Assembly: GCA_030683105.1 (NCBI GenBank) | Contig: JAUXMZ010000037.1 | Coordinates: forward strand, 767 to 64,766 | Reading direction: 5' to 3' | Length of the DNA stretch: 64,000 bases | From: Burkholderiales bacterium | GTDB taxonomy: Bacteria > Pseudomonadota > Gammaproteobacteria > Burkholderiales > SG8-41 | Part shown: positions 1,088 to 54,031 of the stretch, piece after piece | How the letters are laid out: the number at the start of each line of letters is the position of its first letter | Position numbering within the stretch: the first letter of the stretch is position 1 | Program-made: the position numbers and the translations under genes | The notes under the pieces: generated by a model | Seen by the model: the letters and a program-made list of their open reading frames with translations, nothing else | Told to the model about the DNA's origin: nothing | Databases searched by the model: none

Positions 1088-1277
1088 GTGATTCGTACCC
1101 TCCGGGTATTTGCTTTGCGGCATGGTTCGTTGTACGTGGTACGTGGCTCGTGACCGTCAAGCGTACCCGCTTGACGGGTACGACCCACGACCCACGACCT
1201 TTGACACTAATCACTAATCACCAGTCACCAATCACTGGGGTTAGCACGAGCCACGTACAACGAACCACGTACCACGT
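1088..1277. repeat. Composite repeat island (heptamer tracts, 27-nt P box, stem-loop) arranged as an imperfect large palindrome
   Basis: P box CCCTCCGGGTATTTGCTTTGCGGCATG at 1098-1124. Stem-loop GTACCCGCTTGACGGGTAC at 1163-1181. CGTGGTACGTGGCTCGTG (1134-1151) is mirrored by CACGAGCCACGTAC...CCACGTACCACG (1246-1277), and TAATCAC-type heptamers lie at 1207-1233. Confidence 0.9.
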
Positions 1278-1352
1278 TATTATGGTGTTTGCGGTGACGA
1301 TTAAACCTATAACCAGCAGCACTGCCCCTCTATCGCCGGCCTCCAGGTTCCC

Positions 1353-2939
1353 ATGAAAATACGCCTCCCATCATTCATCATCGCCGGCCTGCTGGTGGTC
1401 TTCTTCGCACTCGCCATCACCCAGCGCCCCCAGACCTTTTACCCTGAGGTTGATATCGATGTAGATGCTTCTGGCGGACCTCTCACGCTCAGCTTTCTCT
1501 TCAACAGCCGCCCAACATTACAGAACTGTGAAGCCCTTACCGGCAACATCGCGCGGGTGGTGCTCAAACAGTGCCCGCAATGCCGCGTCAAACTCATCCA
1601 ATGCGACAGCACCTTGGATCAAACCCAAATAAACCTGCTCAGCAACGACCCGCTGAGCACGCCTTCCGGGCGCATGGCCAACGGCGTCCTCATCTTCCGC
1701 TCCACCAACATGGATCTCGCCCTCGCGAGCTGCCAGGCCACCGAAAAACAGTCTGCCGCCGGGATCAATCCGGTCAAATGCTATCCCGCCAACACCCCGC
1801 GCATGAAGCCCGATGCCCGGTCAGTGCTCAGCCTATGGTCCCTGGTGGTCCTGTTTGCCGCGTTCGCCGCCGCCTGGTTCTCCGGCTGGCTCATCGTCAA
1901 ATACGAACACCTGCATGCCCATCTCTCGCATGACCACGTCGGCACCGGCCCGCAGAAAAATCACGCCCAACCCACGCCCCGCATCGGCGGGCTGGCGGTC
2001 ATGGTCGGCCTGCTGGTGGCCGGAGGAATCATGCTCTTCGCCGACGCCTTGCCGGGTGAACGCGAATTCGGGCTCCTGCTGATCGCTAGTGTTCCAGCCT
2101 TTGTCGGCGGCCTGGTCGAAGACATCATCAAGAAAGTCAGTGTGTCCGATCGCCTGCTGCTCACCATGCTCTCCGGTGCAGCCGCCGCCTGGCTGCTGGG
2201 AGCCGCGCTCAACCGGCTGGGTATCCCCGGCGTTGATCAGGCGCTATCGTGGCTGCCCTTCGCGGTGATATTCACCATTTTCGCCGTTGGCGGCATTGCC
2301 AACGCCATCAACATCATCGACGGCTACAACGGGCTGGCCACCGGATTCGCGATCATCGTGCTTGCCGCCATGGCTTTTGTTGCCCATCTGATCGGCGACA
2401 ACCTGATCTTTACTACTGCCCTGGCCATGGCCGGGGCCTTGTTCGGTTTTATGGCCTGGAACTGGCCCGGCGGCAAAATCTTTCTGGGGGATGCCGGCGC
2501 CTATCTGCTTGGCTTTATCCTGGCCGAGTTGTCTGTGCTGCTGGTCGTGCGCAACCCGGAAGTTTCGCCCTGGTTCCCGCTGGTGCTGTTGATCTACCCG
2601 GTGTTCGAGACCTTCTTTTCCATCTACCGTCGCAAGTTCATGCAGGGACTCTCCGCGATGCAGCCGGATAACAAGCACCTGCATCAACTGATCCACGACA
2701 ACGTAGTCCCGCGTGGTGTTCGCTCCGGCGCCCGCCTGAACAAGCTCGATGCCAACAACCGTGTTGCTAAGTATATTTGGTTGCATGCCATCGTCACTGC
2801 CGTGCTGGGTTGCCTCTTCTGGCAATCAACACCGGTGCTGATCGGCATCGCCATCGCCTACTGCGTCTTCTATTTCGTCAGCTATCGGCAGATCGTCCAA
2901 TGGAAAGCGGTGCCTGCCGGATCGCGGAAGCGGGTCTGA
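1353..2939 (+). CDS. Polyprenyl-phosphate sugar-phosphate transferase (MraY/WecA GT4 family) with an extra N-terminal domain
   Basis: 528 aa. The polytopic C-terminal part carries the family signature NAINIIDGYNGLATG and ...PTPRIGGLAV.... The first ~170 aa form a TM-flanked Cys-containing segment not expected in plain WecA. Confidence 0.8.
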   Translation: MKIRLPSFIIAGLLVVFFALAITQRPQTFYPEVDIDVDASGGPLTLSFLFNSRPTLQNCEALTGNIARVVLKQCPQCRVKLIQCDSTLDQTQINLLSNDPLSTPSGRMANGVLIFRSTNMDLALASCQATEKQSAAGINPVKCYPANTPRMKPDARSVLSLWSLVVLFAAFAAAWFSGWLIVKYEHLHAHLSHDHVGTGPQKNHAQPTPRIGGLAVMVGLLVAGGIMLFADALPGEREFGLLLIASVPAFVGGLVEDIIKKVSVSDRLLLTMLSGAAAAWLLGAALNRLGIPGVDQALSWLPFAVIFTIFAVGGIANAINIIDGYNGLATGFAIIVLAAMAFVAHLIGDNLIFTTALAMAGALFGFMAWNWPGGKIFLGDAGAYLLGFILAELSVLLVVRNPEVSPWFPLVLLIYPVFETFFSIYRRKFMQGLSAMQPDNKHLHQLIHDNVVPRGVRSGARLNKLDANNRVAKYIWLHAIVTAVLGCLFWQSTPVLIGIAIAYCVFYFVSYRQIVQWKAVPAGSRKRV

Positions 2940-2949
2940 AAAGGGGACG

Positions 2950-3246
2950 CTACTTGTAGCCGTCTTCTCGTTGGTGCTTGATAGCGAGAATCGTCACGAC
3001 ATCCAAAGAGGATTCGAAGCGGTACAAGGCAAGGTAGCCAGTGGCGCCAAAGTCGATCACAAGCTCACGAAGATCATCATAGTCTTCCACCGGCCTGCCT
3101 ATCATGTGAGATTGTTTGAGCGGCATAAACGCCTCGCGGATCGCAAGCACGGCCCGTTTCGCGGCGTTTGAATCTTTACCGAGCAGAAATGTGTGAAGCC
3201 GGTATATATCGGATTGCGCTCGTGCAGACAGTCTTACGTGTGGCAT
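2950..3246 (-). CDS. parE: ParE/RelE-fold type II toxin
   Basis: 98 aa. ...RLHTFLLGKD...RPVEDYDDLRELVIDFGATGYLALYRFESSLDVVTILAIKHQRE is typical of plasmid-stabilisation ParE toxins. It overlaps the upstream antitoxin gene. Confidence 0.8.
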   Translation of the reverse strand: MPHVRLSARAQSDIYRLHTFLLGKDSNAAKRAVLAIREAFMPLKQSHMIGRPVEDYDDLRELVIDFGATGYLALYRFESSLDVVTILAIKHQREDGYK

Positions 3247-3542
3247 GCCGTGATGGGCGCATCAGGATTCTGTTGTACGTCATCTACCCACGCGCTGAAC
3301 TCATCGAGCGTAATATGCAATCCCGTTTCCTTGTAGTGCTCGAAGGATTTATCGGCGGCCTTGATAAAATTTTGTCGCGCTTCTTCACGCTGCACGTATT
3401 CGAGAATGGCTTCCTTCATGAGGTAATGCGGGGTGCGCTTCTTCATGGCAGCCAGCGAAGCAATCCGGTCGCGGTCAGCAGGGTCGAGTTTGATCGTGAC
3501 CGTACCGGGAGAACGTGGTTTTTCGATAGCAGACGTTTTCAT
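3234..3542 (-). CDS. parD: Ribbon-helix-helix (CopG/ParD-like) antitoxin
   Basis: ORF 3234..3599 trimmed to the internal ATG at 3542 (MKTSAIEKPRSPGTVTIKLDPADRDRIASLAAMKKRTPHYLMKEAILEYV...). It has an RHH-type N-terminus and is paired with ParE. Confidence 0.7.
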   Translation of the reverse strand: MKTSAIEKPRSPGTVTIKLDPADRDRIASLAAMKKRTPHYLMKEAILEYVQREEARQNFIKAADKSFEHYKETGLHITLDEFSAWVDDVQQNPDAPITACHT

Positions 3543-3718
3543 GGCAGCACCAAGTGTTAAAAGGTAACACCATTTTAATTGGCAAGCCAGGTAAGTCAAG
3601 CAAAAACAAAGCTCCCCCTGTCATTGCGAGGAGCGACGCCGAGGACGGCTCCGCGGTGAAGGCGGAGTTCATGCCCTTTCAGGGCGGCGACCGGAAGGCA
3701 GCTTGACCGGGGTTCAAC

Positions 3719-3824
3719 GTATCACGAATCACGATTCACGAACCACGAACCACGTACCACGAACCATGCCGCAAAGCAAATACCCGGAGGGTACGAATCA
3801 CGATTCACGATTCACGAATCACGG
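3719..3824. repeat. Heptamer tract island with a reverse-oriented P box
   Basis: CACGAAT/CACGATT/CACGAAC units flank CATGCCGCAAAGCAAATACCCGGAGGG (3765-3791). Confidence 0.9.
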
Positions 3825-3910
3825 CGCAAATCATTGGGTAGCGTCCCCTATACAAGTGGAGTGGGAAATACCCACTTGACCAATAGCCCACAATAAGCGA
3901 GACTTACGAG

Positions 3911-4198: not shown

Positions 4199-4204
4199 GG
4201 ACTG

Positions 4205-4555: not shown

Positions 4556-4608
4556 GGTAGACTACGGCTATAATCAGCAACTGATCGGCTGGCTTGAGGA
4601 GTGCTTCC

Positions 4609-5162: not shown

Positions 5163-5317
5163 GCCGGATAGCGTGGGCTGAGCCCAACGAAATCGGCAGC
5201 AATGAGGATGCTGCGTCTCTCGTAGCGCCCGGTGGTATGAAATATCGCGTGGTGCGTGATAGGATGTACTTCACATGTTCAGCAAGCGCTTCGGGAAGTC
5301 GATAGTGATAACGGACC

Positions 5318-5491
5318 ATGAAGACAATTTACTATCCGCAGGACGACATTCTGGAAATCCACCTGAGTGACAAACCCGTTGCCCGTGAGGTGTCGCAAGA
5401 CTGAAATGTGAATGTCAGCTACGCCGAGGACGGTTCCGTCGTGGAACTGGTGATTCTGGACGCGGTGAAGGCGGGGTTCATGCCCCACTAA
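5318..5491 (+). pseudogene. DUF2283-family gene interrupted by an in-frame TGA
   Basis: ATG at 5318 gives MKTIYYPQDDILEIHLSDKPVAREVSQD. A TGA follows at 5402-5404, and the same frame then continues NVNVSYAEDGSVVELVILDAVKAGFMPH to the stop at 5489-5491. The two halves together match the DUF2283 layout. Confidence 0.6.
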
Positions 5492-5566
5492 TCACCAATT
5501 ATTCATTTCAATACCCCCTTGAGGGGTACTAATTACCAATCACTGGTTTTAATCGCCAATCACCAG
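5489..5566. repeat. Repeat island (AATCACC-type heptamers plus stem-loop module)
   Basis: TAATCACCAATTATTCATTTCAATACCCCCTTGAGGGGTACTAATTACCAATCAC.... The same module recurs at 6816-6870. Confidence 0.85.
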
Positions 5567-5581
5567 CCGCCGGAGACGGCC

Positions 5582-6416: not shown

Positions 6417-6611
6417 TCAAGCCGCCATTTTCTGCTCATACTGAGCCTTGATCCGGTCCTGCAGGAACCGAATCGGCGACTTGTAGCCGAGCGTGGAGTG
6501 GCGACGACTCCGGTTATAAAACACCTCGATGTAATCGAACAGACCGGCCATAGCCTCGGCGCGGGTCGCATAGCGCGTGACATGCACCCGTTCGTTCTTC
6601 AGGCTGTTGAA
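6417..6611 (-). mobile_element. IS3-family transposase C-terminal remnant
   Basis: ...FNSLKNERVHVTRYATRAEAMAGLFDYIEVFYNRSRRHSTLGYKSPIRFLQD... is the end of a DDE integrase-core OrfB. Upstream of it the sequence switches into the repeat island. Confidence 0.8.
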
Positions 6612-6614
6612 GGG

Positions 6615-6875
6615 TGCGCTCGACGGGTACGAACCATGCCGCAAAGCAAATACCCGGAGGGTGCCAATCACTAATTACCAATCACTGCCTTTAACACCAA
6701 TCACCGGTTCTAGTCACGATTCACGAACCATGCCGCAAAGCAAATACCCGGAGGGTACGAACCACGTAACACGAACCACGGCCTTTCTCACGAATCGCGG
6801 CCTTTGATTCACCAATCACCAATTATTCATTTCAATACCCCTTGGGAGGTACTAATTACCAATTACTAATCACGG
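6615..6875. repeat. Large composite repeat island (two reverse P boxes, heptamers, stem-loop module)
   Basis: P boxes at 6635-6661 and 6729-6755. CAATCAC/CACGAAC units are present, and CATTTCAATACCCCTTGGGAGGTACTAATTACC lies at 6826-6860. Confidence 0.9.
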
Positions 6876-6880
6876 CCCTT

Positions 6881-7005
6881 GATCTTCTGGCCATCAATCA
6901 CATAGTCTGTGGAGTAATGCACCAACACCGCACCAAGGGCCTGTCCCTCTTCGGCTAAAACTCCGGGGGCTGCGGCATTTACAGCGAGAGCAACAGAGTT
7001 GGCCC
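6881..7005 (-). pseudogene. Fragment resembling dTDP-4-dehydrorhamnose reductase (RmlD)
   Basis: Reverse translation gives ...VNAAAPGVLAEEGQALGAVLVHYSTDYVIDGQKI, matching the RmlD NAxAP...LA...GAxLVHxSTDYVFDG region. It is cut off by the repeat island. Confidence 0.35.
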
Positions 7006-7100
7006 CAAACGCCCACGCTCATTGCCTGCGTCGGTGCCTTCTGCGTGTTTTACGTGGCGCAATACCGGCAGCTTGAGCGGTGAGGATATCGCACAAGTGA

Positions 7101-9548: not shown

Positions 9549-9595
9549 GAACATTCGCCTCAACTCTACGCACTCACATAATTTCAATCTTCAGC

Positions 9596-22084: not shown

Positions 22085-22138
22085 TTCGAACACCTCTCTT
22101 TGTGACAATGGAGTGTCCACTGAAACGGGTCAAGTCCA

Positions 22139-37257: not shown

Positions 37258-38729
37258 TACTTACTCCGACCGTAGTTATCTTCGAATCGAACGATATCGT
37301 CTTCGCCCAGATAGCTGCCCGACTGGACTTCGATCATCTCCAATGGGGTCTTGCCGGGGTTCTCCAGACGGTGAGCGGTGCCCAGTGAGATGTAGGTGGA
37401 TTGGTTCTCGGACAACAGGAATGTTTCTTCCCCACGAGTGACCTTGGCCGTACCCTTGACCACGATCCAATGCTCTGCACGGTGGTGGTGCATTTGCAAA
37501 CTAAGTTTGGCGCCGGGCTTGACAGTGATACGCTTGACCTGGAAGCGCTCGCCCACATCAACGCAATCGTATGCCCCCCATGGTCGGGCGGCGCGGCGGT
37601 GTTGCGTGGCTTGGGGAGCGCCGGTTGCCTCCAATTCAGCAACCACCGTCTTGACCAGCTCAGCATGGCTGCAGGCCGCAACCAGAAGTGCGTCCGGGCT
37701 GTCTATGATAAGGAGATCCCGGGTCCCCAGCGCGACCACGGGTCGATGTGGGGCATGGATGTAGGTATTGTTGGCTTGCACTGCCCTGCCTTGACCATGA
37801 ATGCGGTTGGCCATTTCATCGGCAGGGGTGAGCTCTGCCACGGCGTTCCAACTCCCCACGTCGCTCCACTGACCGGTAAAGGGCACCATGGCGACCTTGT
37901 CGTGATGCTCAAGCACGGCGTAATCGATGGAATCGCTTGGGCAGGCGGCAAAGGCCTCTGGGTCCAGCCGGATAAAGAGGCCGTCCTCGGTTTGCTGCGC
38001 CGTGGCCAGGCGGCAGGCCGTAAGGATGTCGGGGGCGTGCTGTTCAAGCGCCATGATGATGGTGCTGGCCTTGGCCAGGAAGATGCCGGCGTTCCAATAA
38101 TGACCGCCGGCCAGGAGAAGTTGCCGGGCGCTGTCGGCGTCCGGCTTTTCGATGAAGCGGGCGACATTGAAAACCGGTGGTTCGTGGTTCGTACCCGTCG
38201 AGCGGGTATTGAAAAGAATGCTTCGTTGGTCGTTGTTCGTTGATCGTGGATCGTGATTCACGACTTTTATGTATCCATAGGCAGTGCTGGGAAACGTGGG
38301 CAGCACCCCGAAGGTGACTATGTAACCCGCCTGGGCAGAAGGCACACCTTTCTGAATTGTGGCTGCAAACGCTTGTGCATCGGGAATATGGTGGTCTGCC
38401 GGAGCGAACAGCAAAAGCTGATCCGGCTGGGCATTGAGCGCCGCAACCGCCATAGCGGGTGCCGTGTTGCGGCCGACGGGTTCCAGTATGTGTCGCGCGC
38501 TGACGCCCGCGGCCTCTGCTGCCTCCTGCACGAGGAAGCGGTGCTCGTCGCTCGCCACGGTTTGCATCTGCGGCGAGATGTGCTTTACGCGCTCCAGCGT
38601 CAGTTGCAGCAAGCTTTTGCCATTGATCAGCGGCACGAATTGCTTGGGAAAAGCTTTGCGCGACAATGGCCACAGGCGCGTACCCGAGCCACCGCAAAGC
38701 AGGACAGGAAGGATGTTCGTCACACTCAT
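37257..38729 (-). CDS. manC: Mannose-1-phosphate guanylyltransferase / mannose-6-phosphate isomerase
   Basis: 490 aa. ...VLLCGGSGTRLWPLSR...GRNTAPA...WSDVGSW...QVKRITVKPGAKLSLQMHHHRAEHWIVVKGTA.... It contains an in-frame composite repeat (38176..38258). Confidence 0.9.
   Translation of the reverse strand: MSVTNILPVLLCGGSGTRLWPLSRKAFPKQFVPLINGKSLLQLTLERVKHISPQMQTVASDEHRFLVQEAAEAAGVSARHILEPVGRNTAPAMAVAALNAQPDQLLLFAPADHHIPDAQAFAATIQKGVPSAQAGYIVTFGVLPTFPSTAYGYIKVVNHDPRSTNNDQRSILFNTRSTGTNHEPPVFNVARFIEKPDADSARQLLLAGGHYWNAGIFLAKASTIIMALEQHAPDILTACRLATAQQTEDGLFIRLDPEAFAACPSDSIDYAVLEHHDKVAMVPFTGQWSDVGSWNAVAELTPADEMANRIHGQGRAVQANNTYIHAPHRPVVALGTRDLLIIDSPDALLVAACSHAELVKTVVAELEATGAPQATQHRRAARPWGAYDCVDVGERFQVKRITVKPGAKLSLQMHHHRAEHWIVVKGTAKVTRGEETFLLSENQSTYISLGTAHRLENPGKTPLEMIEVQSGSYLGEDDIVRFEDNYGRSK
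38176..38258. repeat. Composite repeat (heptamers + stem-loop + heptamers) inside the manC coding sequence
   Basis: GGTGGTT CGTGGTT C-GTACCCGTCGAGCGGGTAT-TGAAAAGAATGCTT CGTTGGT CGTTGTT CGTTGAT CGTGGAT CGTGATT. It is translated as NHDPRSTNNDQRSILFNTRSTGTNHEPP. The same composite is intergenic at 45494-45627 and 49576-49690. Confidence 0.9.
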
Positions 38730-38852
38730 GGTTCGTGATTGGTGTTAAGGGCGGTGATTAGTGTTAAGGGCGGTGATTAGTAACTAGAATCAGTGATTAG
38801 TGACTGGTAATTGGTGAATCAAACAACCGTGGCTCATTGATCGTGGTTCGTG
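38730..38852. repeat. Repeat island (heptamers plus two GTGTTAAGGGCGGTGATT boxes)
   Basis: It begins immediately after the manC start codon. K boxes start at about 38741 and 38760. Confidence 0.9.
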
Positions 38853-38858
38853 TCGCCA

Positions 38859-39744: not shown

Positions 39745-39780
39745 TCAATGTCGCTCAAAGGCCGGGGCGGGCTTACCCCA

Positions 39781-39960
39781 GTGATTAGTGATTGGTGATT
39801 AGTGATTGGCACCCGCCGGGTATTTGCTTTGCGGCATGGTTCGCACCCTCCGGGTATTTGCTTTGCGGCATGGTTTGTACCCGTCTAGCGCACCCCTCGA
39901 GGGGGTATTGAAAAGAAGGTATTAAAGTGAATGGGTCGTGGGTCGTGAGTCGTTGTTCGT
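39781..39960. repeat. Composite repeat island (heptamers, tandem P boxes, stem-loop modules)
   Basis: P boxes lie at 39812-39838 and 39846-39872, a 34-nt pitch. GTACCCGTCTAGCGCACCCCTCGAGGGGGTATTGAAAAGAAGGTATT and CGTGGGT CGTGAGT CGTTGTT units are also present. Confidence 0.9.
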
Positions 39961-40344
39961 CTATTGCTGTTCTTGTAAGCGCATTAGCAGTAGCTTTTGC
40001 TCCGGCAGGAAATGACTGAGACGGTCGTACACCGCTAATGCGTGCTTGGCATTGTATGTATGAGACATCCGATTCCTCGCCTCGAGCATTTCCAGCCAAG
40101 TCTCCTCGTCACTAATCCAGCCGAGGCTGAATGCTTGCTTTAAGCATGCCTTGGGAGATGCACATTCCGGCAAGCCTTGCGACAACGATGCGAGTTTGAT
40201 CGATTTCCATGCGAGTTCAAAGGAAAATTCAAAGTACTGGATGCATCCGGCCTTGATCAAATCGCTGTCTGCAGGCACCGATAAGGCGCTCTCCAGTTGT
40301 GACAGGGCTGTTTCATAATCCGCGAGGATCCAGTTCTCACTCAT
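39961..40344 (-). CDS. Nucleotidyltransferase substrate-binding protein, HI0074 family (HEPN-type toxin partner)
   Basis: MSENWILADYETALSQLESAL...IQYFEFSFELAWKSIK...ARNRMSHTYN.... It has an 8-nt overlap with the MNT gene. Confidence 0.75.
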   Translation of the reverse strand: MSENWILADYETALSQLESALSVPADSDLIKAGCIQYFEFSFELAWKSIKLASLSQGLPECASPKACLKQAFSLGWISDEETWLEMLEARNRMSHTYNAKHALAVYDRLSHFLPEQKLLLMRLQEQQ

Positions 40345-40651
40345 ATAAAACCTCAATGTGCTCCATTGCCCGTTCTCTGAATTCGGGATTGACTCGATTT
40401 AGATCCACCCAATCAATTTTATAAAGAGTGGGCAAATCGTCAAACGTGTCCTCTATCGCAAAAAATGTTTTCAAAGGCAGCGGTTCGTCACCATACGCGC
40501 CTACGTCGAAATCGGAGCGTGGGCGCGCTTTCCCGGTCGCTCGCGATCCAAACAGAAAAACCCGATGCCCTTTTAACTCGGTCTTATATCGGAGCAATTG
40601 CTGCTTGAGCATAGCCTTGATTTGTACGGCTCGTTGGTCGTTGGTCGGCAT
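40337..40651 (-). CDS. Minimal nucleotidyltransferase (MNT) domain protein
   Basis: 104 aa. ...VFLFGSRATGKARPRSDFDVGAY.... The first ~7 codons (MPTNDQR) are written in heptamer units. An alternative start is at MLKQQL. Confidence 0.75.
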   Translation of the reverse strand: MPTNDQRAVQIKAMLKQQLLRYKTELKGHRVFLFGSRATGKARPRSDFDVGAYGDEPLPLKTFFAIEDTFDDLPTLYKIDWVDLNRVNPEFRERAMEHIEVLYE

Positions 40652-40700
40652 TCGTTGTTCGTTGTTCGTTGTTCGTTGTTCGTGTTAAGGGCGGTGATTA
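40632..40700. repeat. Heptamer tract (CGTTGGT x2, TCGTTGT x4) plus K box
   Basis: It overlaps the MNT start codon at 40651. Confidence 0.9.
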
Positions 40701-40878
40701 GAACTCATCTCAAAAACCCCTCTACCCCGATTTTGGGGGAGAGGGCAGGGTGAGGGGGGCAGGAAAACATTGGCATATTGCACCGTGAAATTGACTGGCT
40801 TATTGCCCCTCTCCCCAACCCTCTGGCCCTAGGCCACCCCGTCCCCATCAGTGCGGGGAGAGGGAGTATTTTTGAGAC
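40701..40878. repeat. GC-rich CCCCTCT...AGAGGG hairpin repeats in an inverted pair enclosing only ~44 bp
   Basis: GAACTCATCTCAAAAACCCCTCTACCCCGATTTTGGGGGAGAGGGCAGGGTGAGGGG ... CCCCTCTCCCCAACCCTCT...GCGGGGAGAGGGAGTATTTTTGAGAC. The same family occurs at 51578-51665, 52581-52665 and around the DUF559 gene. Confidence 0.8.
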
Positions 40879-40898
40879 ACGCTCTAGTAACTGGCGGC

Positions 40899-41531: not shown

Positions 41532-41717
41532 TAGGCAAGGTACACCACATCATAACTAATGGCCAACAAAATCATCGCGCTAGGTCGAGGTTCGCAGGCC
41601 GTTGTTCGTTGTTCGTGTTAAGGGCAGTAATCCATATTATGGATAGTTGTAAAGCCCGCAGCTTCTGCGGCAGGCGTAACCCAATTTCTGCCACTGGTCG
41701 CGGCCGGGGCGCCGCCG

Positions 41718-42929
41718 CTATCTGCCCAGGAGATAGCGGCGCAGGAGGTCCAGCCGTGCGGCTTGCTCGGGATTTTGGCGGGCTTTTTGGCCGGCCTCCT
41801 TAATAAATGCCCATATGACGGCCAGGAAGCCTGCCACAAGGGCGGTCAGTATCACGATAAGCGCGCGTTTGGGACTGGACCTGCGATCAGGTTCGATGGC
41901 CTTATCCATGACCTGGATGATGGAGGAATCCTTGGCTTCGTCGATCTTGGCAAGCCCATACTGCTGCGCGAGCAGTTCGTAGACCGTTTCGTTGTACTTC
42001 AGATCGCGCAACAGACCCAGGTTGTCGATGCCTTCGCTATTGGTTTTCTGAGCATCTTCAGGTTTGCCAGCGGCACCCTCTATTTTCGCAAGCTGGCGTT
42101 TCATCGCTTCCAGCTCCTGCTGTGCCATCAACAGGTCAGGGTTGCGCTCGGCGGCAAAGGTTCGCATGGCGCCGATCTGCACTTCCTTGACGGTGATCTG
42201 TGCCCGCAATCGGGCGCTGCTTTCCGCCATGCTGCGGCCCTGGCCTTCGACCTGGACGAGGCCGCCTTTTTCCAGCGCCTGCCGGGCAGTCGCTTCGGAT
42301 TTGGTGAGATTGACCTTGGCCTGCTCCAACTGGCGTTCGAAAAACAGGCGACGCTGGGCGGCTTCGGTCACTGCCAGCACATTGGTCAGTTTATCGAGCT
42401 CCTCCACATAGGCATTGGCGAGGGTGGCCGCGCGCTTTGGATCCTTGTCGTCCACGGCGATGGAAATTATGCCGTCCTTGCCGGAGGTGATCGTCGACAC
42501 GTTCTCCAGTTGTTTACGGGTGTGGGATTGGTATTCCTTCCCGTAAAGCTTGTTCAGATCGAAGCGCTGGATCAGGTTGTCCGCCACAGTACGGCTCTTG
42601 AGCATAGCGACGTACATGTCGTTGGGGTTCTTGATGCCAGCCACTCCGCCAGCCAACCCGGCAACGGCGCCGAGCTGGTTCAGCATGGCGGAAGCGGTCG
42701 ACTGGCTTTGCTGCGGCGGCAGGATCTTCGTCGTCGCCGTGAAGATAGGGGTCATCAGCAAGCTGACGATCACGGCGAGAACCGCGGCCAGGAAGGGAAG
42801 GCCGAGGATTAGCTTCTTATGCTTCGCCAGGACGATGGCGAGATCAATAAGATTGATCTCGTCATCGTCTGGTGGCTCAACACTTGTGATTGGTGATTGG
42901 TGATTGGTGATTAGTGATTCTTCGCTCAT
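41718..42929 (-). CDS. Wzz/chain-length-determinant family protein (no kinase domain)
   Basis: 403 aa. It has an N-terminal TM (LILGLPFLAAVLAVIVSLLM), a long coiled-coil periplasmic part and a C-terminal TM (ALIVILTALVAGFLAVIWAFI). Residues 5-16 ([12 protein letters not shown]) are encoded by heptamer units. Confidence 0.75.
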   Translation of the reverse strand: MSEESLITNHQSPITSVEPPDDDEINLIDLAIVLAKHKKLILGLPFLAAVLAVIVSLLMTPIFTATTKILPPQQSQSTASAMLNQLGAVAGLAGGVAGIKNPNDMYVAMLKSRTVADNLIQRFDLNKLYGKEYQSHTRKQLENVSTITSGKDGIISIAVDDKDPKRAATLANAYVEELDKLTNVLAVTEAAQRRLFFERQLEQAKVNLTKSEATARQALEKGGLVQVEGQGRSMAESSARLRAQITVKEVQIGAMRTFAAERNPDLLMAQQELEAMKRQLAKIEGAAGKPEDAQKTNSEGIDNLGLLRDLKYNETVYELLAQQYGLAKIDEAKDSSIIQVMDKAIEPDRRSSPKRALIVILTALVAGFLAVIWAFIKEAGQKARQNPEQAARLDLLRRYLLGR

Positions 42930-43051
42930 GATTGGTGATTAGCGTTAAAAACAGTGATTGGCGAACGGCGGTGATTGGTAACTAGAACCAGTGATTAGTA
43001 ATTAGTAATTGGTGTTAAGGGCAGTGATTAGTAACTGGTAATTAGTGATTA
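42883..43051. repeat. Repeat island spanning the wzz-like start codon
   Basis: TTGTGAT TGGTGAT x3 TAGTGAT lies at 42884-42918, inside the CDS. Heptamers and K-box variants then run up to 43051. Confidence 0.9.
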
Positions 43052-43736
43052 GCAAGGCTTGGTGTTGGTTAGCGCGGCTGAGCACCCTATCGTCGTCAGC
43101 GCCAGGCTCCATTTCGGCAACGTAATCCACCTCGTGGCCGTCTTCCCGGAGCCGCAGCACAATCGGCCTGTCAACGCCTTCGTGAAGAGTCCCTAACATA
43201 GTGAAACACGTGTGCGTTGCGAGTCAAAATTGGTGATGACGCGAAGGATGGCGCAGAGCATATCGCGAATATGGTCAAGCCGGCCGACAAAGTGTCCCGT
43301 GCAGGGCGGAGCAGGTTCCAAGTGTTCTATGCTTGGATGCGACCCCGGAGCGGGACGAAAGCGCGCCATCATGTACGGGCCTAATGCACGCCTGCGCGGT
43401 CGCATCCCCGCAAGCGGGGCCCCTGCTCCACGCTTCGGCGCGCCGCCGATTTTGATCGCAACCCTTCGGGCTGACACGAGTTTTGGCCTGTCGCCCCCGG
43501 CTCTCGGCGAGCGCAGCTTTGGGGCGGAGACGGGGGCCGGGGGGTGCCGCAACTCCCGCAACCGGGGCTTGGGCGCCGTTCCCGCAAACGGGCCTGCGGC
43601 AAACGAGTCACGGCGCCCCCTTGTCGCTCCCCTTGCCCATATTCGCGATATGGCCTGCGGAAAGCTTCGCGTCCTGAGCCAAAATCGTGCCAGCGCATCT
43701 CGCGTTTCACTATGTTAGGGACTCAAAGAGCTTCAC
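43002..43736 (-). pseudogene. DUF5615 (PIN-like) toxin gene, interrupted by a MITE and 3'-truncated by heptamer repeats
   Basis: The GTG at 43736 overlaps the DUF433 stop. Deleting 43187-43724 plus one AA restores GTG AAG CTC TTT CAC GAA GGC... = MKLFHEGVDRPIVLRLREDGHEVDYVAEMEPGADDDRVL.... After ~50 codons the frame runs into repeats (...ALLITNYQLLITALNTNY*). Confidence 0.7.
43187..43724. mobile_element. MITE-like non-autonomous element (538 bp) with 21-bp perfect terminal inverted repeats
   Basis: GAGTCCCTAACATAGTGAAAC lies at 43187-43207 and its reverse complement at 43704-43724. The imperfect IR extends to ~95 bp and includes CATATCGCGAATATGG in both arms. The element is flanked by AA/AA and has three CCCGCAANCGGG hairpins inside. 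Confidence 0.8.
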
Positions 43737-43969
43737 GCAGCCTTATCGGCAATCGGATAGATCACATCCCCTCGAAGTGCTTGCGCAGCAAATTCGAGTG
43801 CCGCCAATATGTCGTCTTGTTTCAGGCGCGGATGCGCTTCCAGGATTTGCTCCGTAGACTCCCCGTGCGCGAGTTTTTCCAGGATGCTTTCCACGGTAAT
43901 ACGGGTGCCAGCAATAACCGGTTTACCCATCATCACAGTCGGATTGGATTCAATATGTGCTTGATTCAT
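43733..43969 (-). CDS. DUF433 antitoxin-like protein
   Basis: MNQAHIESNPTVMMGKPVIAGTRITVESILEKLAHGESTEQILEAHPRLKQDDILAALEFA.... Confidence 0.75.
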   Translation of the reverse strand: MNQAHIESNPTVMMGKPVIAGTRITVESILEKLAHGESTEQILEAHPRLKQDDILAALEFAAQALRGDVIYPIADKAA

Positions 43970-44043
43970 ATAGACCTCCGTAGAATTATTATTATACACA
44001 CCCTACTCGACAGCCTTGGGGCGCGGCTTAATGGCCGTGACTG

Positions 44044-44087
44044 GTGTCAAAAAACAGTGATTAGTGATTAGTGATTGGTGATTAGTA
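44044..44087. repeat. Heptamer tract with K-box variant
   Basis: GTGTCAAAAAACAGTGATTAGTGATTAGTGATTGGTGATTAG. Confidence 0.9.
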
Positions 44088-44091
44088 GTCA

Positions 44092-44412
44092 TCAACTGCC
44101 AGCCTGGCTTTTTATGGAGCGGATCAGGCCTTGAAGCATTTTCGATATTGTTTCCAGATGATTCTGTAATTCGTCAAGTTTGCGGCTATCACCTAATCCT
44201 ATTTTTCTTGATATCTCGATCTGCGTATCCAGTTCACTGGCCGAACCCAGGGCAATGTAGAGGAACTGCAGAAATTCCTTGTTGCCTTGCCGCGCTGCGC
44301 CTTCCGCGATGTTGCTCGCGATCGAGACAGCACTTCGTTTCATTTGGCTGACAATACCGTATTGCTCGTCCTTCGGATATGCCTTGGTCAGTTCGTAGGT
44401 GTCCCGTGCCAA
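44092..44412 (-). pseudogene. Four-helix-bundle protein (23S rRNA IVS-protein family), N-terminally truncated copy
   Basis: ...ARDTYELTKAYPKDEQYGIVSQMKRSAVSIASNIAEGAARQGNKEFLQFLYIALGSASELDTQIEISRKIG.... It lacks the first ~16 residues of the neighbouring paralogue. The upstream end is a repeat tract. Confidence 0.6.
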
Positions 44413-44448
44413 AGGCAGTGATTAGTGATTAGTAACTGGTGATTGGTA
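44405..44448. repeat. Heptamer tract with K-box variant
   Basis: CGTGCCAAAGGCAGTGATTAGTGATTAGTAACTGGTGATTGG. Confidence 0.9.
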
Positions 44449-44452
44449 GCCA

Positions 44453-44818
44453 TCAACTGCTAGCCTGGCTCTTTACGGAGCGGATCAGGCCCTGAATCAT
44501 TTTCGATATCGATTCCAAATTCTCTTGCACTTCAAGAAGCTCCTTGGTGTCCCCTAAGCCTATTTCCCTTGACACCTCGATTTGTGTATCTAACTCGCTT
44601 GCCGAACCAAGAGCAATGTACAAAAACTGTATAAATTCCTTGTTGCCCTGCCGTGCCGCGCCTTCAGCTATGTTGCTAACCACCGACACGGCGGCGCGGC
44701 GCATTTGGGAAGCCAAACCATACATTTCCTCTTTAGGATAGCCGTTCGTGGCATGGTATACCGCTTTGACCAACTGGATACCGTGTTTCCAGACTTCTAG
44801 GTCTTTGTGCGATTTCAT
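44453..44818 (-). CDS. Four-helix-bundle protein (23S rRNA IVS-protein family)
   Basis: 121 aa. MKSHKDLEVWKHGIQLVKAVYHATNGYPKEEMYGLASQMRRAAVSVVSNIAEGAARQGNKEFIQFLYIALGSASELDTQIEVS.... Confidence 0.8.
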   Translation of the reverse strand: MKSHKDLEVWKHGIQLVKAVYHATNGYPKEEMYGLASQMRRAAVSVVSNIAEGAARQGNKEFIQFLYIALGSASELDTQIEVSREIGLGDTKELLEVQENLESISKMIQGLIRSVKSQASS

Positions 44819-44822
44819 AAAT

Positions 44823-44937
44823 CGGTGATTGGTGTTAAGGGCGGTGACTGGTGACTGGTGATTGGTGATTAGTGACTGGTAATTGGTGAATCAACAACCG
44901 TGGCTAGTGGTTCGCGGATCGGGGGTCGTTGGTCGTG
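44823..44937. repeat. Repeat island (K box, GTGACTG/GTGATTG units, CGTTGGT units)
   Basis: It overlaps the 3' end of the parE pseudogene, whose tail ...NRTTNDPRSANH* is repeat-encoded. Confidence 0.9.
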
Positions 44938-45219
44938 CGGTTCTTCCAGTAACCTGGCCTTCTGCTAGTGTGGGCGATTGCTACAACGAGGAATTCGTCG
45001 CGGTACTCAAGGTAAATGATTGCATAGGGGAACCGGTTGGTCACGCCGCATCCGATTCCCGATAGATCTCCCTGAGGCCGGAAACTGCTGAACAAATTGG
45101 GTTGCCTTCACGAACTCCGAGAGGAACGCTGCGCCAAGTCCAACCTGCCGTTCATCATAGAACCCAGCCGTCTCAACCAGTTCGACATCAGCCTCCGCCG
45201 ACAGCCGTACCGGCTTCAC
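44904..45219 (-). pseudogene. parE: ParE/RelE-family toxin gene with a 1-nt frameshift
   Basis: Frame A reads MKPVRLSAEADVELVETAGFYDERQVGLGAAFLSEFVKATQFVQQFPASGRSIGNRMRR.... Frame B reads ...VTNRFPYAIIYLEYRDEFLVVAIAHTSRRPGYWKNR. The two join around 45040-45046. Confidence 0.7.
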
Positions 45220-51671: not shown

Positions 51672-52184
51672 TTACGCGGCGGCTAACAGCCAGTCGCGGT
51701 CGACTTTCAGGCGGTTCATTTTGCCCAGCATCTCTAGCAGGACGATCACCCGCTCTTCGCCGGTTTCCTGGCTGAATACGCCTTCCAGGCCGGTGAACGG
51801 GCCGTCCACGAATTTCACCGTCGCGCCGGGCTGGAACACCGTGCGCTGCAAGTGCATCCCGGCGGCAGCGTCCTGCCGCGCCCGCAGTTCTTCAATCAAT
51901 GCATCCGGCACCACCGCCGGTTGCCCGCCGAACCTGACCAGGCCAGAGACGCCGAAAGTAGAGCGCACCGGGGCCAGGCTTTGCGTCTCATCCCGCGGCC
52001 TGAGAAACAGATACCTTGGAAACAGCGGCTCGATCCGTTCCACCCATTTGCCCAGGCGCCGGTGCCGGCCCATCAGGCGCGGCAGGTAGACCGCATAGCC
52101 CTGGTTCTCAAGATGAGTCACTGCAAGCTCTTCGCCGCGGGGCTTGCAGAATACGATATACCATTGATTATCATGGTTTTTCAA
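51672..52184 (-). CDS. rfaH: RfaH/NusG-paralogue transcription antiterminator
   Basis: 170 aa. ...WYIVFCKPRGEELAVTHLENQGYAVYLP...EPLFPRYLFL...VKFVDGPFTGLEGVFS (NGN + KOW). Confidence 0.8.
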   Translation of the reverse strand: MKNHDNQWYIVFCKPRGEELAVTHLENQGYAVYLPRLMGRHRRLGKWVERIEPLFPRYLFLRPRDETQSLAPVRSTFGVSGLVRFGGQPAVVPDALIEELRARQDAAAGMHLQRTVFQPGATVKFVDGPFTGLEGVFSQETGEERVIVLLEMLGKMNRLKVDRDWLLAAA

Positions 52185-52189
52185 TGTAA

Positions 52190-52504
52190 TCAGCCCTCCA
52201 CTTCCCGCTTCAGTTCTTCGATCTCGTGCTTCAGCGCATCGTATTCCGCCATCTTGCGCCGCAGAAAATTCACGGTAAGCGTTGCTTTTTGCTCGATGCC
52301 GCTCGGAGTAAGCAGATAGGCATAGCTGAGTTTGTCGCGGTTGTTGCGGAAATTGCGCGCCTTGATCCAGCCCTTTTCGATCAGCGCGGCGAGGCAGTAA
52401 TTGATTTTGCCCAAGCTGACGCCCAGCTCACGCGCCAGTTCCCGCTGGCTCAGGTTAGGCTGTACCTCGAGCAACTTGAGTAATCGGTAGTGCGATTCGT
52501 CCAT
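52190..52504 (-). CDS. MarR-family EPS-associated transcriptional regulator
   Basis: 104 aa. MDESHYRLLKLLEVQPNLSQRELARELGVSLGKINYCLAALIEKGWIKARNF...YLLTPSGIEQK.... Confidence 0.8.
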   Translation of the reverse strand: MDESHYRLLKLLEVQPNLSQRELARELGVSLGKINYCLAALIEKGWIKARNFRNNRDKLSYAYLLTPSGIEQKATLTVNFLRRKMAEYDALKHEIEELKREVEG

Positions 52505-52520
52505 AGCAGCAGGTCTTGCT

Positions 52521-52584
52521 AGTGATTGGTGATTGGTGATTGGTGATTAGTGTTAAGGGCAGTGATTGGTAACTAGTGATTAGA
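52521..52584. repeat. Heptamer tract plus K box
   Basis: AGTGATT GGTGATT GGTGATT GGTGATT AGTGTTAAGGGCAGTGATTGGTAACTAGTGATTAG. Confidence 0.9.
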
Positions 52585-52665
52585 ACTCATCTCAAAATCC
52601 CCTCTCCCCCCGTGCTCAGGGGGACCTCGGTGCCGCTCGACGGTAGAGGGCAGGGTGAGGGGGCA
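52581..52665. repeat. GC-rich hairpin repeat, right member of the inverted pair bracketing marR-rfaH
   Basis: GAACTCATCTCAAAATCCCCTCTCCCCCCGTGCTCAGGGGGACCTCGGTGCCGCTCGACGGTAGAGGGCAGGGTGAGGGGGCAG. It has the same 5' leader as the copy at 40701. Confidence 0.85.
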
Positions 52666-52832
52666 GTAGTGCGGGAATCCCTTCCCGCCGAGGTGTCGGC
52701 AAGGATTGCCGACCTACGCTATGGGGCAGCATCTCCAGCAACTCTCGTTTAGCGGCAAAATTACTGGCTTACCCTCTTGTACATGGCCTGTTCAATCGTT
52801 GAACGGTGATTCAAACAAATCCCAGGGAGAAT

Positions 52833-52871
52833 GTCAAATTAAATGGGCCCCGAGGACCGGGGGCATTTAAT
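52833..52871 (+). repeat. 38-bp GC-hairpin repeat, copy 1 (direct repeat flanking the phd-PIN module)
   Basis: GTCAAATTAAATGGGCCCCGAGGACCGGGGGCATTTAAT. Confidence 0.85.
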
Positions 52872-53017
52872 CAGTAATTGGTGATTAGTGATTGGCACCC
52901 TCCGGGTATTTGCTTTGCGGCATGATTGGTGTCAAAGGCCGTGGTTCGTACCCGTCAAGCGAGTGTTGAAAAGAAGGTATTGAAAGGAAGGTATTGTGAA
53001 GAATGGGTCGTGCGTGG
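52872..53017. repeat. Composite repeat island (heptamers, P box, stem-loop module)
   Basis: The P box lies at 52898-52924. GTACCCGTCAAGCGAGTGTTGAAAAGAAGGTATTGAAAGGAAGGTATTGTGAAGAATGGGTCGTGCGTGG ends at the PIN gene stop. Confidence 0.9.
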
Positions 53018-53449
53018 TTATCTAGCGGGGGCGATCACGTTGAATCCCTCCCGCTGCACTGCGGCCGTAAGCCGCTCATCCAGGCACACAAAATCAAGGG
53101 AGGAAGGCCGGTGGTCGCTCGCCAGGATCGCCGCAGCCAGTTGCAGCGAATCGGCAACGCGAAGATTATGCACGCGCAACAAGCGTATTGCTGTTTCCTT
53201 AAGCGCCTCGACCGGCTGCACCTCTTGCCATCCGGATGTCAGCGCCCGCAAACGCGTCAACGCCTCTGCAAGAGAATCCGGCGATATTGCGCCCTGCCGC
53301 TCAAGACGCGCCAATGCGGAAATGCATTCCACACCAGTACCCCACCAAGCGATTATCAATGGGTCTTCCCGGTACAAGTCAACGACGAAGGAAGTAGCCG
53401 GCTCCTCTGCCAGAAGCGGGACAATCGCGGAACTGTCCCAGAACTTCAC
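53018..53449 (-). CDS. vapC: PIN-domain toxin
   Basis: GTG at 53449 overlaps the antitoxin stop (GTGA). It reads VKFWDSSAIVPLLAEEPATS...VADSLQLAAAILAS...FVCLDERL.... Confidence 0.7.
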   Translation of the reverse strand: MKFWDSSAIVPLLAEEPATSFVVDLYREDPLIIAWWGTGVECISALARLERQGAISPDSLAEALTRLRALTSGWQEVQPVEALKETAIRLLRVHNLRVADSLQLAAAILASDHRPSSLDFVCLDERLTAAVQREGFNVIAPAR

Positions 53450-53745
53450 CGGCTTTCGTCGCGTTCGGAAAACAGTGCCTGAAGGATACTCGCCCCCTCC
53501 TTGACCTTGGGCGGGCGCTTCTCCCAAAGCAGGTTCGAGGGTTTGCTGCTCGCGCGCCGAATGATCCCGTTGCGCTCAAGGTGCGCCAGGCATCCTTTGA
53601 GATCAGCTTGATCGTCATTGCCGACAGGCTCCAGCCGCGCCACTGGACGATCCCGATCCGTGATAAGTATGGTTTCACCGTGACGCACTTTATCAAGCAG
53701 TGCGCTCAATTGGTTTTTTGTTTCGGTTATTGAGGCTATTTTCAT
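53446..53745 (-). CDS. phd: Phd/YefM-type antitoxin
   Basis: 99 aa. MKIASITETKNQLSALLDKVRHGETILITDRDRPVARLEPV.... Confidence 0.75.
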   Translation of the reverse strand: MKIASITETKNQLSALLDKVRHGETILITDRDRPVARLEPVGNDDQADLKGCLAHLERNGIIRRASSKPSNLLWEKRPPKVKEGASILQALFSERDESR

Positions 53746-53775
53746 AAAGCTATAATAGCCTTTTGCTGAAAGGCC

Positions 53776-53813
53776 GTCAAATTAAATGGCCCCGAGAGCC
53801 GGGGGCATTTAAT
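53776..53813 (+). repeat. 38-bp GC-hairpin repeat, copy 2
   Basis: GTCAAATTAAATGGCCCCGAGAGCCGGGGGCATTTAAT, in the same orientation as copy 1. Confidence 0.85.
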
Positions 53814-53814
53814 T

Positions 53815-54031
53815 CGTGGGGCGTGGCTTAAAACCAGTGATTAGTGACTCAAGAACAGTGATTGGTGAATCAACAACCGTGATTGGTGATTAGTGATTGG
53901 TGATTGGCGAATCGTGGCTTAAAACCAGTGACAGTTACTGGTGATTAGTGATTGGTGAATCAAACCCAGTGCCTGGTAATTTGGTTTAAACGACCAACCA
54001 CTAATCACTAATCACTAATTACCAATCACGG
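53815..54031. repeat. Long heptamer/K-box-variant island ending in a reverse-oriented tract
   Basis: GGCTTAAAACCAGTGATTAG occurs twice. GTGATTG/GTGATTA units follow, then CCACTAATCACTAATCACTAATTACCAATCACGG abuts the export-protein stop. Confidence 0.9.

Follow-up and report, generated by a model that had tools for sequence, protein, structure and literature searches.

Tandem arrays of heptamers have been catalogued in bacteria for decades without a mechanism or a function being assigned to them. The short tandemly repeated repetitive (STRR) sequences of heterocystous cyanobacteria are built from units such as CCCCAGT, TTGGTCA and CAACAGT, and in Rickettsia palindromic elements of 100-150 bp are tolerated in frame within protein genes. 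The small dispersed repeats (SDRs) of Nostoc punctiforme, described by Elhai et al. in 2008 (Genome Res 18:1484), are reported to be 21-27 nt long, dispersed, mostly non-coding, patchy, nestable and mobile-like, with no known enzyme. In Proteobacteria, intergenic heptamer arrays have been published for Xanthomonas (GGGAATC; PMC4692102), for marine Beggiatoaceae, as direct TAACTGA repeats near start codons (PMC4679880), and, as heptanucleotide elements, for Geobacter metallireducens (PMC2700814). Repetitive extragenic palindromes (REPs), their paired form (REPINs) and the bacterial interspersed mosaic elements (BIMEs) are short extragenic imperfect palindromes in intergenic mosaics, which are regarded as non-autonomous mobile DNA and of which some are intragenic (PMC3733652, PMC3116915), and the tandem repeats of Borgs arise locally and are tolerated in frame in protein-coding genes (PMC9879509). 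Here, we analyzed heptamer arrays carrying short elements, designated P, S, K and J, in a 64-kb stretch (the window in the following) on a single contig, JAUXMZ010000037.1, of one metagenome-assembled genome (MAG) of a Burkholderiales bacterium. An initial annotation, made from the sequence alone, had likened their style to that of the STRR sequences in spite of a proteobacterial-type gene content. The NCBI source name 'MAG: Burkholderiales bacterium' agrees with a non-cyanobacterial host, and the likeness in style stands; the proteobacterial setting is less unprecedented than had been implied, because the arrays of Xanthomonas, Beggiatoaceae and Geobacter were already described.

The heptamer-based repeat system postulated by the initial annotation is real, dense and far above chance. 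One heptamer register, TGxTTxG, is common to all modules and is occupied by two classes of units, TGATTRG (h, 111 units) and TGKKTCG with its variants (c, 94 units); TAACTGG and TAACTAG are present as minor units. In-register runs of the listed units amount to 1449 nt as compared to 5.6 nt in shuffled sequences, and the unit count gives 205 in-register units in 59 runs with a total of 1435 nt. The window contains 22 heptamer-periodic tracts, and dozens of period-7 arrays were detected by TRF, with a maximum of 9.6 perfect copies at 46907-46973, in line with the up to nine perfect copies that had been noticed before. These arrays form 28 island segments dispersed over the window. Parsed in a single register, they follow the grammar [h/K]n-P-c-S-[c]n, and this parse accounts for 81% of the 3178 island bases.

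P is exactly 27 nt long (YACCCKCCGGGTATTTGCTTTGCGGCA). The 12 copies that had been reported were all recovered at a threshold of up to 3 mismatches, 11 of them exact and one with a single mismatch, where 0.00 are expected in shuffles. A complete in-phase heptamer flanks P on each side in 12 of 12 copies, and removal of the 27 nt restores a seamless array in every case. The copies are near-identical while the flanking units vary between them, which suggests a recent spread of P. The copies of P are:

1096 to 1122, plus strand: exact copy, YACCCKCCGGGTATTTGCTTTGCGGCA
3767 to 3793, minus strand: heptamer-flanked copy
6637 to 6663, minus strand: heptamer-flanked copy
6731 to 6757, minus strand: heptamer-flanked copy
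39810 to 39836, plus strand: the sole copy with a mismatch (CCCGCC)
39844 to 39870, plus strand: heptamer-flanked copy
47850 to 47876, plus strand: heptamer-flanked copy
47884 to 47910, plus strand: heptamer-flanked copy
49427 to 49453, plus strand: heptamer-flanked copy
49494 to 49520, plus strand: heptamer-flanked copy
49547 to 49573, plus strand: heptamer-flanked copy
52896 to 52922, plus strand: heptamer-flanked copy

S (YACCCSTCNAGSGGGTRTTGAAAAGAA) is likewise 27 nt long and, like P, to which it is related, a hairpin element. The two have one insertion site in common, the bond ...xG^TG... of the heptamer, with a fixed orientation to the array and no target duplication. The junctions read CG^TACCC or GG^CACCC, and the ends are xG^YACCC...GGCA^TG for P and ...AGAA^TG for S. 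The stem-loop with the tail TTGAAAAGAA described initially was found again in about 9 copies. At two sites, 39878-39931 and 49581-49634, one S lies inside another, inserted after GCG, and this nesting accounts for the apparent 14-nt tandem GGTATTGAAAAGAA. In the 6-bp stem of S, 98.3% of the cells are paired and two pairs are changed on both sides; the paired fraction or the covariation score was equalled by only 5 of 500 shuffles, and the fold has a z-score of -3.3. One of the changes, a compensated exchange of G-C to C-G, is found in the variant TACCCCTCAAGGGGGTA at 5502-5528. The two small hairpins of P are weak (z about -0.6) and not better than those of shuffled sequences. The copies of S are:

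5502 to 5528, minus strand: S copy with the stem pair G-C changed to C-G
38192 to 38218, plus strand: S copy of 27 nt within ManC, TACCCGTCGAGCGGGTATTGAAAAGAA
39878 to 39931, plus strand: nested pair, outer S split into 13 + 14 nt, inner S at 39891-39917
45510 to 45536, plus strand: S copy in the island 45490-45640
45564 to 45590, plus strand: S copy directly preceded by a 13-nt S 5' half at 45551-45563
49581 to 49634, plus strand: nested pair, outer S split into 13 + 14 nt, inner S at 49594-49620
50604 to 50630, minus strand: S copy in an inverted array

K has a 12-nt core (TGYYAARRRCNG), and 16 K-like cores of 11-13 nt lie in register; about 10 close copies had been claimed, and the corresponding 18-mer was matched 11 times at up to 3 mismatches with 0.06 matches expected. 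J (TGAATCAACAACCG, 14 nt) occurs in 4 in-register copies. None of P, S, K and J shows a target duplication or terminal inverted repeats, and the orientation of each to the array is constant. K is confined to h units, S is confined to c units apart from the variant at 5502-5528, which lies between h units, and P is located mostly at the boundary between h and c. Islands also have larger blocks in common, of 91 nt with 95% identity (39788 versus 47828) and of 139 nt with 84% identity (39837 versus 49540). The modules had been thought to be freely shuffled, whereas the actual arrangement is one of register-locked insertions at a single heptamer bond that follow a grammar, together with these shared blocks of 91-139 nt.

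With respect to their distribution, the statement that almost every intergenic gap between 1.1 and 54 kb is filled holds for 1-7 kb and for 38.7-54.0 kb; it fails for the polysaccharide block between 6872 and 35381, where no array run is present. Most arrays are intergenic as stated, the exceptions being two that lie within the genes for Gmd and ManC. The individual islands are:

1086 to 1150, plus strand: island c-P-cccc, left arm of the hairpin 1128-1277
1151 to 1280, minus strand: inverted island cccc, hhhh, cc with an S hairpin half (1164-1180), right arm of the hairpin 1128-1277
3715 to 3830, minus strand: island ccccc-P-ccccccc
5480 to 5581, minus strand: island hh-S-hh with the S variant TACCCCTCAAGGGGGTA
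6600 to 6885, minus strand: island hhh..S-tail..ccc-P-cch..h-K-hhh-P-c-S5' half
35375 to 35412, plus strand: array of 4-5 units, intragenic in Gmd (35160-36296, minus strand), read in frame
38170 to 38262, plus strand: island cc-S-ccccc, intragenic in ManC (37257-38729, minus strand), read in frame
38727 to 38858, plus strand: island c-h-K-h-K-hh..hhh-J..cc in the gap between ManC and YhaV-PrlF
39775 to 39962, plus strand: island hhhh-P-c-P-c-[S nested in S]-cccc
40625 to 40700, plus strand: island cc..cccc-K, adjoining a MITE-like element
41595 to 41635, plus strand: small island, cc and a K-like core
42880 to 43060, plus strand: island hhhh..hh-K-h..hh..hhh-K-hhhh, overlapping the mechanical start of the Wzz reading frame
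44035 to 44091, plus strand: island h-K-hhhh, downstream of S23p gene B
44405 to 44452, plus strand: island K-hhhh, occupying the entire 40-nt gap between two S23p genes
44822 to 44935, plus strand: island h-K-hhhhhh-J-h-c, upstream of S23p gene A
45490 to 45640, plus strand: island cc-S-cc-S5'-S-cchcc
45775 to 45815, plus strand: array ccccc
46900 to 46990, plus strand: longest perfect array, (TCGTTGT) x 9.6, within which an independent contig ends
47770 to 47930, plus strand: island K-hhhh-K-hhh-P-c-P-cc, right after the VapC stop codon
49415 to 49695, plus strand: largest island, h-P-h-K-hhh-P-h-K-c-P-c-[S nested in S]-cccccccc
50436 to 50540, plus strand: island ccch..hhh..cccc, left arm of the hairpin 50510-50605
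50541 to 50645, minus strand: inverted island c-S-cccccccch, right arm of the hairpin 50510-50605
51310 to 51405, plus strand: island hhhh-K-hhhh.ch
51486 to 51525, minus strand: inverted array hhhhc
52515 to 52585, plus strand: island hhhhh-K-hhh, adjoining a MITE-like element
52866 to 53020, plus strand: island hhhh-P-h-K-c-S5'-(S tails x3)-ch
53820 to 53990, plus strand: island ..J-hhhh..hhh-J-hc
53991 to 54033, minus strand: inverted array hhhhh, ending at the Wza stop codon

The two strands of the arrays differ in their density of stop codons. The strand reading TGxTTxG, which includes the GTGATT-type units, carries 12.4 stops per 100 nt, 3.4-fold more than the complement with 3.7. The stop-rich half of the original claim is thus borne out; the complement, described as mostly open, is ordinary rather than specially open, because its value is close to the window background of 3.4, and AGTGATT units even place TAA on it. 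The predicted orientation was found as well, in that between 35 and 54 kb the stop-rich strand is antisense to the minus-strand genes in all but three runs. The inverted half-arrays, as proposed, give long hairpins, with folding energies of -41.1 kcal/mol (z -7.2) for 1128-1277 and -35.8 kcal/mol (z -6.0) for 50510-50640.

Promoter-like and terminator-like sites are not enriched in the islands (13 versus 9.8 +/- 3.0 and 25 versus 18.2 +/- 4.2, respectively, as compared to the shuffle means), and the terminator pattern is matched by no more than one or two copies of P. A role as promoter or terminator was rejected on the basis of these counts. A GC-rich hairpin with AT-rich flanks (GTCAAATTAAATGGSCCCCGAG..CCGGGGGCATTTAAT), which is terminator-like on both strands, is present in two copies at 52833-52875 and 53768-53806. 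Rfam 15 gave no match at gathering score in the window, the sole match with E<=1 in 38.7-54.05 kb being a chance miRNA, and no genes for tRNA or tmRNA were found in the window.

Since the source is a MAG, an assembly artefact of low-complexity reads was considered. Eight proteins of the window have exact database records. Seven of them (among these MDP2240460.1, MDP2240461.1 and MDP2240494.1) are named by NCBI as 'MAG: Burkholderiales bacterium' and belong to one contig of 70,654 bp, and the eighth is known only from Logan. Two independent Logan contigs of run SRR13727541 agree with the window base for base, L308 with 44056-46936 and L309 with 57851-62893. Together, they reproduce 7.9 kb, including four islands internal to L308 and inverted arrays of 9-mers. 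Due to this exact match, the islands are real sequence and not a misassembly of low-complexity reads, which had been named as a possible refutation. The ends of L308 fall within the arrays 44056-44086 and 46907-46973; breaks of this kind are what an artefact might leave, and the copy number of these two arrays is therefore uncertain. The intragenic arrays, however, are traversed in frame by open reading frames (ORFs), and the strict register of the modules is not expected from chimeric joins, so that an artefact is extremely improbable.

The minus strand between 38.8 and 53.7 kb encodes a run of small operons, namely the toxin-antitoxin (TA) systems YhaV-PrlF, HEPN-MNT, MazEF (twice), MqsRA and several VapBC/PIN-Phd pairs, together with two S23p four-helix-bundle genes, a wHTH-NusG-like pair and Wzz. 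Arrays are present in 17 of the 17 inter-operon gaps from ManC to Wza; in this stretch, none was seen inside a TA pair, and the sigma-70-like TA promoters sit between array and gene. Wza and Wzz adjoin at a distance of 148 bp in relatives (L082-L084), whereas about 11 kb of TA and small-gene cassettes with islands lie between them here (window 41718-56790). An integron cassette array was considered and rejected, as 38.7-54.0 kb holds 0 attC candidates (RYYYAAC...GTTRRRY) versus 1.5 expected and the window ORFs scanned contain no integrase domain. The block at 10-34 kb, which has a GC content of 45-50% and carries IS3-like and IS4-like transposase genes of insertion sequences (IS), is free of arrays. 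At 20908-23064 of this low-GC polysaccharide block, IS3-like genes (HTH_Tnp_1 + rve) overlap an IS4-like gene (DUF4372 + DDE_Tnp_1). A small plus-strand ORF at 5318-5480 resembles, by eye, a DUF2283-type protein and seems to be broken by a stop or frameshift immediately upstream of the island 5480-5581.

Both intragenic arrays are read in frame. In ManC, the array is a cc-S-ccccc block of 83-84 nt, and the loop after the conserved STAYGYI motif is about 21 residues longer than in six homologues. The 4-5 units in Gmd encode 10 residues of a variable loop. The peptide ITNHESP encoded there (35377-35411, residues about 295-306) can be aligned with VTGHDAP in GMD of E. coli (1db3). Possibly, the array is an expansion of native sequence rather than an insertion, or the match may be due to chance. 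Mechanical ORFs for Wzz, an antitoxin and VapB extend upstream through the stop-poor array strand at 42880-42929, 45462-45716 and 48571-48759, and start codons called within arrays are probably wrong. The ORF at 45216-45716 has 81 aa in the Logan gene call as compared to 166 aa in the mechanical one.

Miniature inverted-repeat transposable element (MITE)-like elements with CCCCTCTCCCC...GGGGAGAGGG inverted repeats are located at 40700-40880, 51570-51665 and 52585-52700. Two of them begin directly after a TGATTAG unit, which is followed by AACTCATCTCAAAA, and a similar element is found in a related MAG (L137:16020-16440). P, S and K themselves were rejected as MITEs on the grounds of seamless excision and the lack of duplications and terminal inverted repeats. 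In the gap between the ABC and TolC-like genes (61505-61641), inverted half-arrays of 9-mers, CACAGAGAA/CACAGAGTT x4 and then CTCTGTGKY x3, enclose a CACCCGGCGGGTG hairpin in an architecture like that of the heptamer islands with a period of 9. This 9-mer island folds at -32.6 kcal/mol (z -5.1), its sequence is confirmed by the independent assembly, and in a relative whose ABC protein is 92% identical, an unrelated hairpin takes its place.

The initial annotation did not recognize the module set as a described repeat family, and P, S and K have no match in Rfam, GTDB representatives, JGI metagenomes, IMG/VR, PLSDB or 3.1 Mb of fetched loci. Specifically, exact-pattern scans with the P core gave 0 matches in GTDB species representatives, JGI metagenomes and IMG/VR, the S core gave 0 in IMG/VR, and an island gave none in PLSDB by blastn. 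In the 3.1 Mb of fetched loci, P and S (up to 4 mismatches) and J (up to 2 mismatches) were without match, and K had five IMG/VR matches, which are due to chance because all lie in AT-rich coding sequence without arrays. A protein-database search with the ORF translated across an island returned translations of (CGTGGTT)n and no P or S. No arrays are present in 1.4 Mb of loci from ManC-based relatives (up to 66% identity), which served as control. Contigs with an 86-92% identical ABC protein lack the islands and have at most one unrelated (GGTTGAT)4 array. Contigs encoding a VapC that falls into the same cluster at 90% identity, among them one of a betaproteobacterial MAG, RIFCSPLOWO2, carry only two heptamers (ACGAACA ACGAACC) just past the VapC stop codon and one mini inverted array; other gaps there hold GTGG-tagged REP-like palindromes, in tandem in one gap (GGTGTGGGAGCGAGCTTGCTCGCGAAC). 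The heptamers and palindromes of the betaproteobacterial MAG are those of L311:2190-2600 and 3399-3440. In contrast to the elements, the array style is common. (CGTGGTT)3 is present in more than 120 JGI metagenome contigs, many with 55-66% GC and alike in their multi-variant style with inverted half-arrays, and IMG/VR contigs have arrays of AGTGATT and AGTGGTT, some with recurrent central hairpin modules. The units AGTGATT, AGTGGTT and CGTGGTT thus occur in this style in IMG/VR and metagenome contigs without P, S or K, and repeats like the scaffold are thus widespread. From these comparisons, P, S, K and J as its inserts appear to be lineage-specific.

Both S23p genes of the window (44092-44818; PF05635, an Avd-like four-helix bundle known from intervening sequences (IVS) of 23S rRNA) are bracketed by heptamer arrays. 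In array-bearing metagenome loci, which had been selected for their arrays, 7 of 7 S23p-like ORFs lie 0-15 nt from an array (contigs L216, L217, L219, L229 and L248); for several of them the upstream and downstream arrays are inverted to each other, and different contigs have different heptamers. In L219, the S23p cassette is located within a sugar ABC transporter operon. No S23p gene is present in the 1.4 Mb of control loci. When sampling was started from S23p itself, a single-protein scan gave no relatives and a two-sequence alignment one locus only. A direct repeat of 300 nt with 77% identity (44050-44349 versus 44411-44710; family D7) shows a tandem duplication of the S23p gene together with the adjacent array. 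About 12 N-terminal profile positions are missing from S23p gene B, the mechanical start of which abuts the array.

Taken together, the islands are probably STRR-like slippage arrays that have been colonised by lineage-specific micro-elements and are mainly selfish or neutral, a reading which we favour with some reserve. Replication slippage would lengthen and shorten the arrays of the degenerate heptamer TGxTTxG. P and S would spread by site- and strand-specific insertion via a trans-acting enzyme encoded elsewhere, by array-array gene conversion with heptamer homology, or by both, and a single-strand mechanism of the HUH/Y1 type would fit the absent duplication and the fixed orientation. Such DNA would accumulate with residence time in the genome wherever spacer DNA is free, which fits the array-free block of 45-50% GC. 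Within transcription units, arrays would persist in the orientation that adds no stops, GUG starts or Shine-Dalgarno-like GGUGAU to the sense strand, and the orientation bias plausibly reflects selection against sense RNA rich in GGUGAU/GUG and in stops. The long hairpins of inverted half-arrays would be a by-product and may serve as structural sites in RNA or DNA.

Several points weigh against this reading. The initial annotation had proposed to look for an associated enzyme, and the window ORFs scanned contain no Y1/HUH domain, no REP-associated tyrosine transposase (RAYT), no integrase and no other suitable transposase; only DDE-type IS genes are present, and for this reason the mobilising activity is one that we infer entirely. 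The evidence comes from one contig of the genome. The shared multi-module blocks and the recurrent P-heptamer-S adjacency could result from recombination without transposition. A functional element, too, would be perfectly associated with operon junctions, strictly oriented and equipped with a conserved hairpin like that of S, and the P hairpins are weak (z about -0.6). A bolder version, which we regard as rather doubtful, would place P and S among the smallest homing DNA elements, of 27 nt, strand-specific, duplication-free, directed to one phosphodiester of the heptamer repeat and dependent on a trans-acting enzyme, with the arrays as landing pads for micro-transposons; linked to it, arrays and S23p (Avd-like) genes would form IVS-like cassettes in many phyla.

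The same anatomy might be that of functional cis-elements, whose transcribed (AAUCACY)n/(AACCACG)n tracts and hairpins would be bound by a post-transcriptional regulator or cut by an RNase. The sense P hairpin would expose a GGA loop as bound by CsrA, and RNase III would cut the stems of the inverted half-arrays and so set the transcripts of the cassettes apart, in the manner of the intervening sequences of 23S rRNA. Arrays at every operon junction with strict orientation to transcription (35-54 kb), the compensated pairs in the S stem and the very stable hairpins of inverted arrays are consistent with such a role, as is the bracketing of S23p genes, a family first found in rRNA intervening sequences, by inverted heptamer arrays on unrelated contigs; for the TAACTGA repeats of Beggiatoaceae, a role as translational regulators has been proposed (PMC4679880). 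However, unit number, unit sequence and module content vary at every site, islands are absent from relatives with the same genes, two arrays lie within enzyme genes, the TA promoters are found between array and gene and not within the array, a gene for a regulator was not identified, and nothing but a GGA triplet points to CsrA. We therefore consider such a function unlikely.

P and S could also be REPs that a RAYT (Y1 HUH transposase) encoded elsewhere in the genome mobilises, within a BIME-like mosaic in which the heptamers are accompanying motifs; we regard this as quite unlikely. Their length of 27 nt, imperfect palindromy, mostly extragenic location, locally high copy number and mosaic arrangement with other motifs would suit this assignment, as would the insertion without target duplication and the classical GTGG-tagged REP-like palindromes in the equivalent gaps of a relative; intragenic REPs are known, too (PMC3733652). 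Both ends of P and S, though, lack the GTAG/CGTC tag (compare PMC3733652), the copies are mostly direct instead of forming inverted REPIN doublets as in PMC3116915, and the window has no RAYT gene. A different view would make the arrays recombination substrates for the capture and shuffling of small cassettes such as TA pairs and S23p, in analogy to an integron array or the minimal mobile elements of Neisseria but by homologous recombination. It draws on the about 11 kb of array-bounded, nearly all co-oriented cassettes between Wza and Wzz, which are 148 bp apart in relatives, on the heptamers after the stop codon of a same-cluster (90% identity) VapC with different neighbours in another genome, and on the tandem duplication of S23p with its array (family D7). 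Yet no integrase was found and attC-like R''/R' core pairs number 0 versus 1.5 expected, the cassettes have promoters of their own, and arrays also occur without a cassette, namely those in Gmd and ManC and the one located upstream of a glycosyltransferase gene (at 1353). This makes capture by recombination very unlikely.

The locus offers an unusually clean anatomy for heptamer arrays, with one register, one insertion bond, nested and un-nested 27-nt elements and in-frame intragenic copies. In addition, a native-GC stretch saturated with arrays lies next to a low-GC block without them. With all these features combined, the question of origin, by insertion or by gene conversion, becomes testable. 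If general, the association of S23p with arrays would open a first genomic way into a large protein family that lacks a functional assignment. The quality of MAGs is affected as well, since assemblies of short reads break within the arrays, and so is annotation, since the stop-free array strands lengthen ORFs artificially, as seen for the Wzz start and the ORF 45216-45716.

When compared with the described systems, the islands share with STRR sequences and other heptameric simple sequence repeats the tandem heptamers in several variants, the dispersed, mostly intergenic location and the occasional inverted half-arrays. Unlike in the STRR sequences, the host is not cyanobacterial, the units are others, every inter-operon gap is filled at extreme density, and register-locked inserts are present. 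None of CCCCAGT, TTGGTCA, CAACAGT, TAACTGA, GGGAATC, GGGGAYT and GGGACCG occurs in tandem in the window (TAACTGA is found twice, never in tandem). The system is thus not a member of the canonical STRR families, since units and host differ. The arrays of Beggiatoaceae, Xanthomonas and Geobacter are likewise intergenic, occasionally intragenic and of unknown function, with inverted pairs in Xanthomonas too; they consist, however, of essentially one heptamer each and are short, with no nested elements described, as opposed to two classes, many variants and P, S, K and J here. P and S resemble the SDRs in their 27 nt, in the nesting of S in S and in their lineage specificity, and differ from them in phylum and in sequence. 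The target of P and S is demonstrably one bond of a heptamer repeat. They resemble REPs and BIMEs as imperfect palindromes in the size range of 20-40 nt that are mostly extragenic and form mosaics with further motifs, although the P hairpins are weak; the unpaired GTAG/CGTC tag at one end, REPIN doublets and, in the window, a RAYT are missing, and BIMEs have no heptamer scaffold. As the tag is absent, P and S are not members of the GTAG/CGTC-tagged REPs (compare PMC3733652). The ManC and Gmd arrays parallel the Rickettsia palindromic elements and the Borg repeats as in-frame repeat DNA that adds loop or disordered residues, with the difference that here most copies are intergenic and heptamer-based. 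We found no description of a register-locked nesting of 27-nt elements in heptamer arrays, the closest precedent known to us being the Nostoc SDRs. In its workings, the system would resemble heptamer arrays of the STRR type that have taken up micro-elements akin to SDRs, REPs or BIMEs. The best reading is that the scaffold belongs to a known class of repeats, to which the register-locked 27-nt inserts add a new feature.

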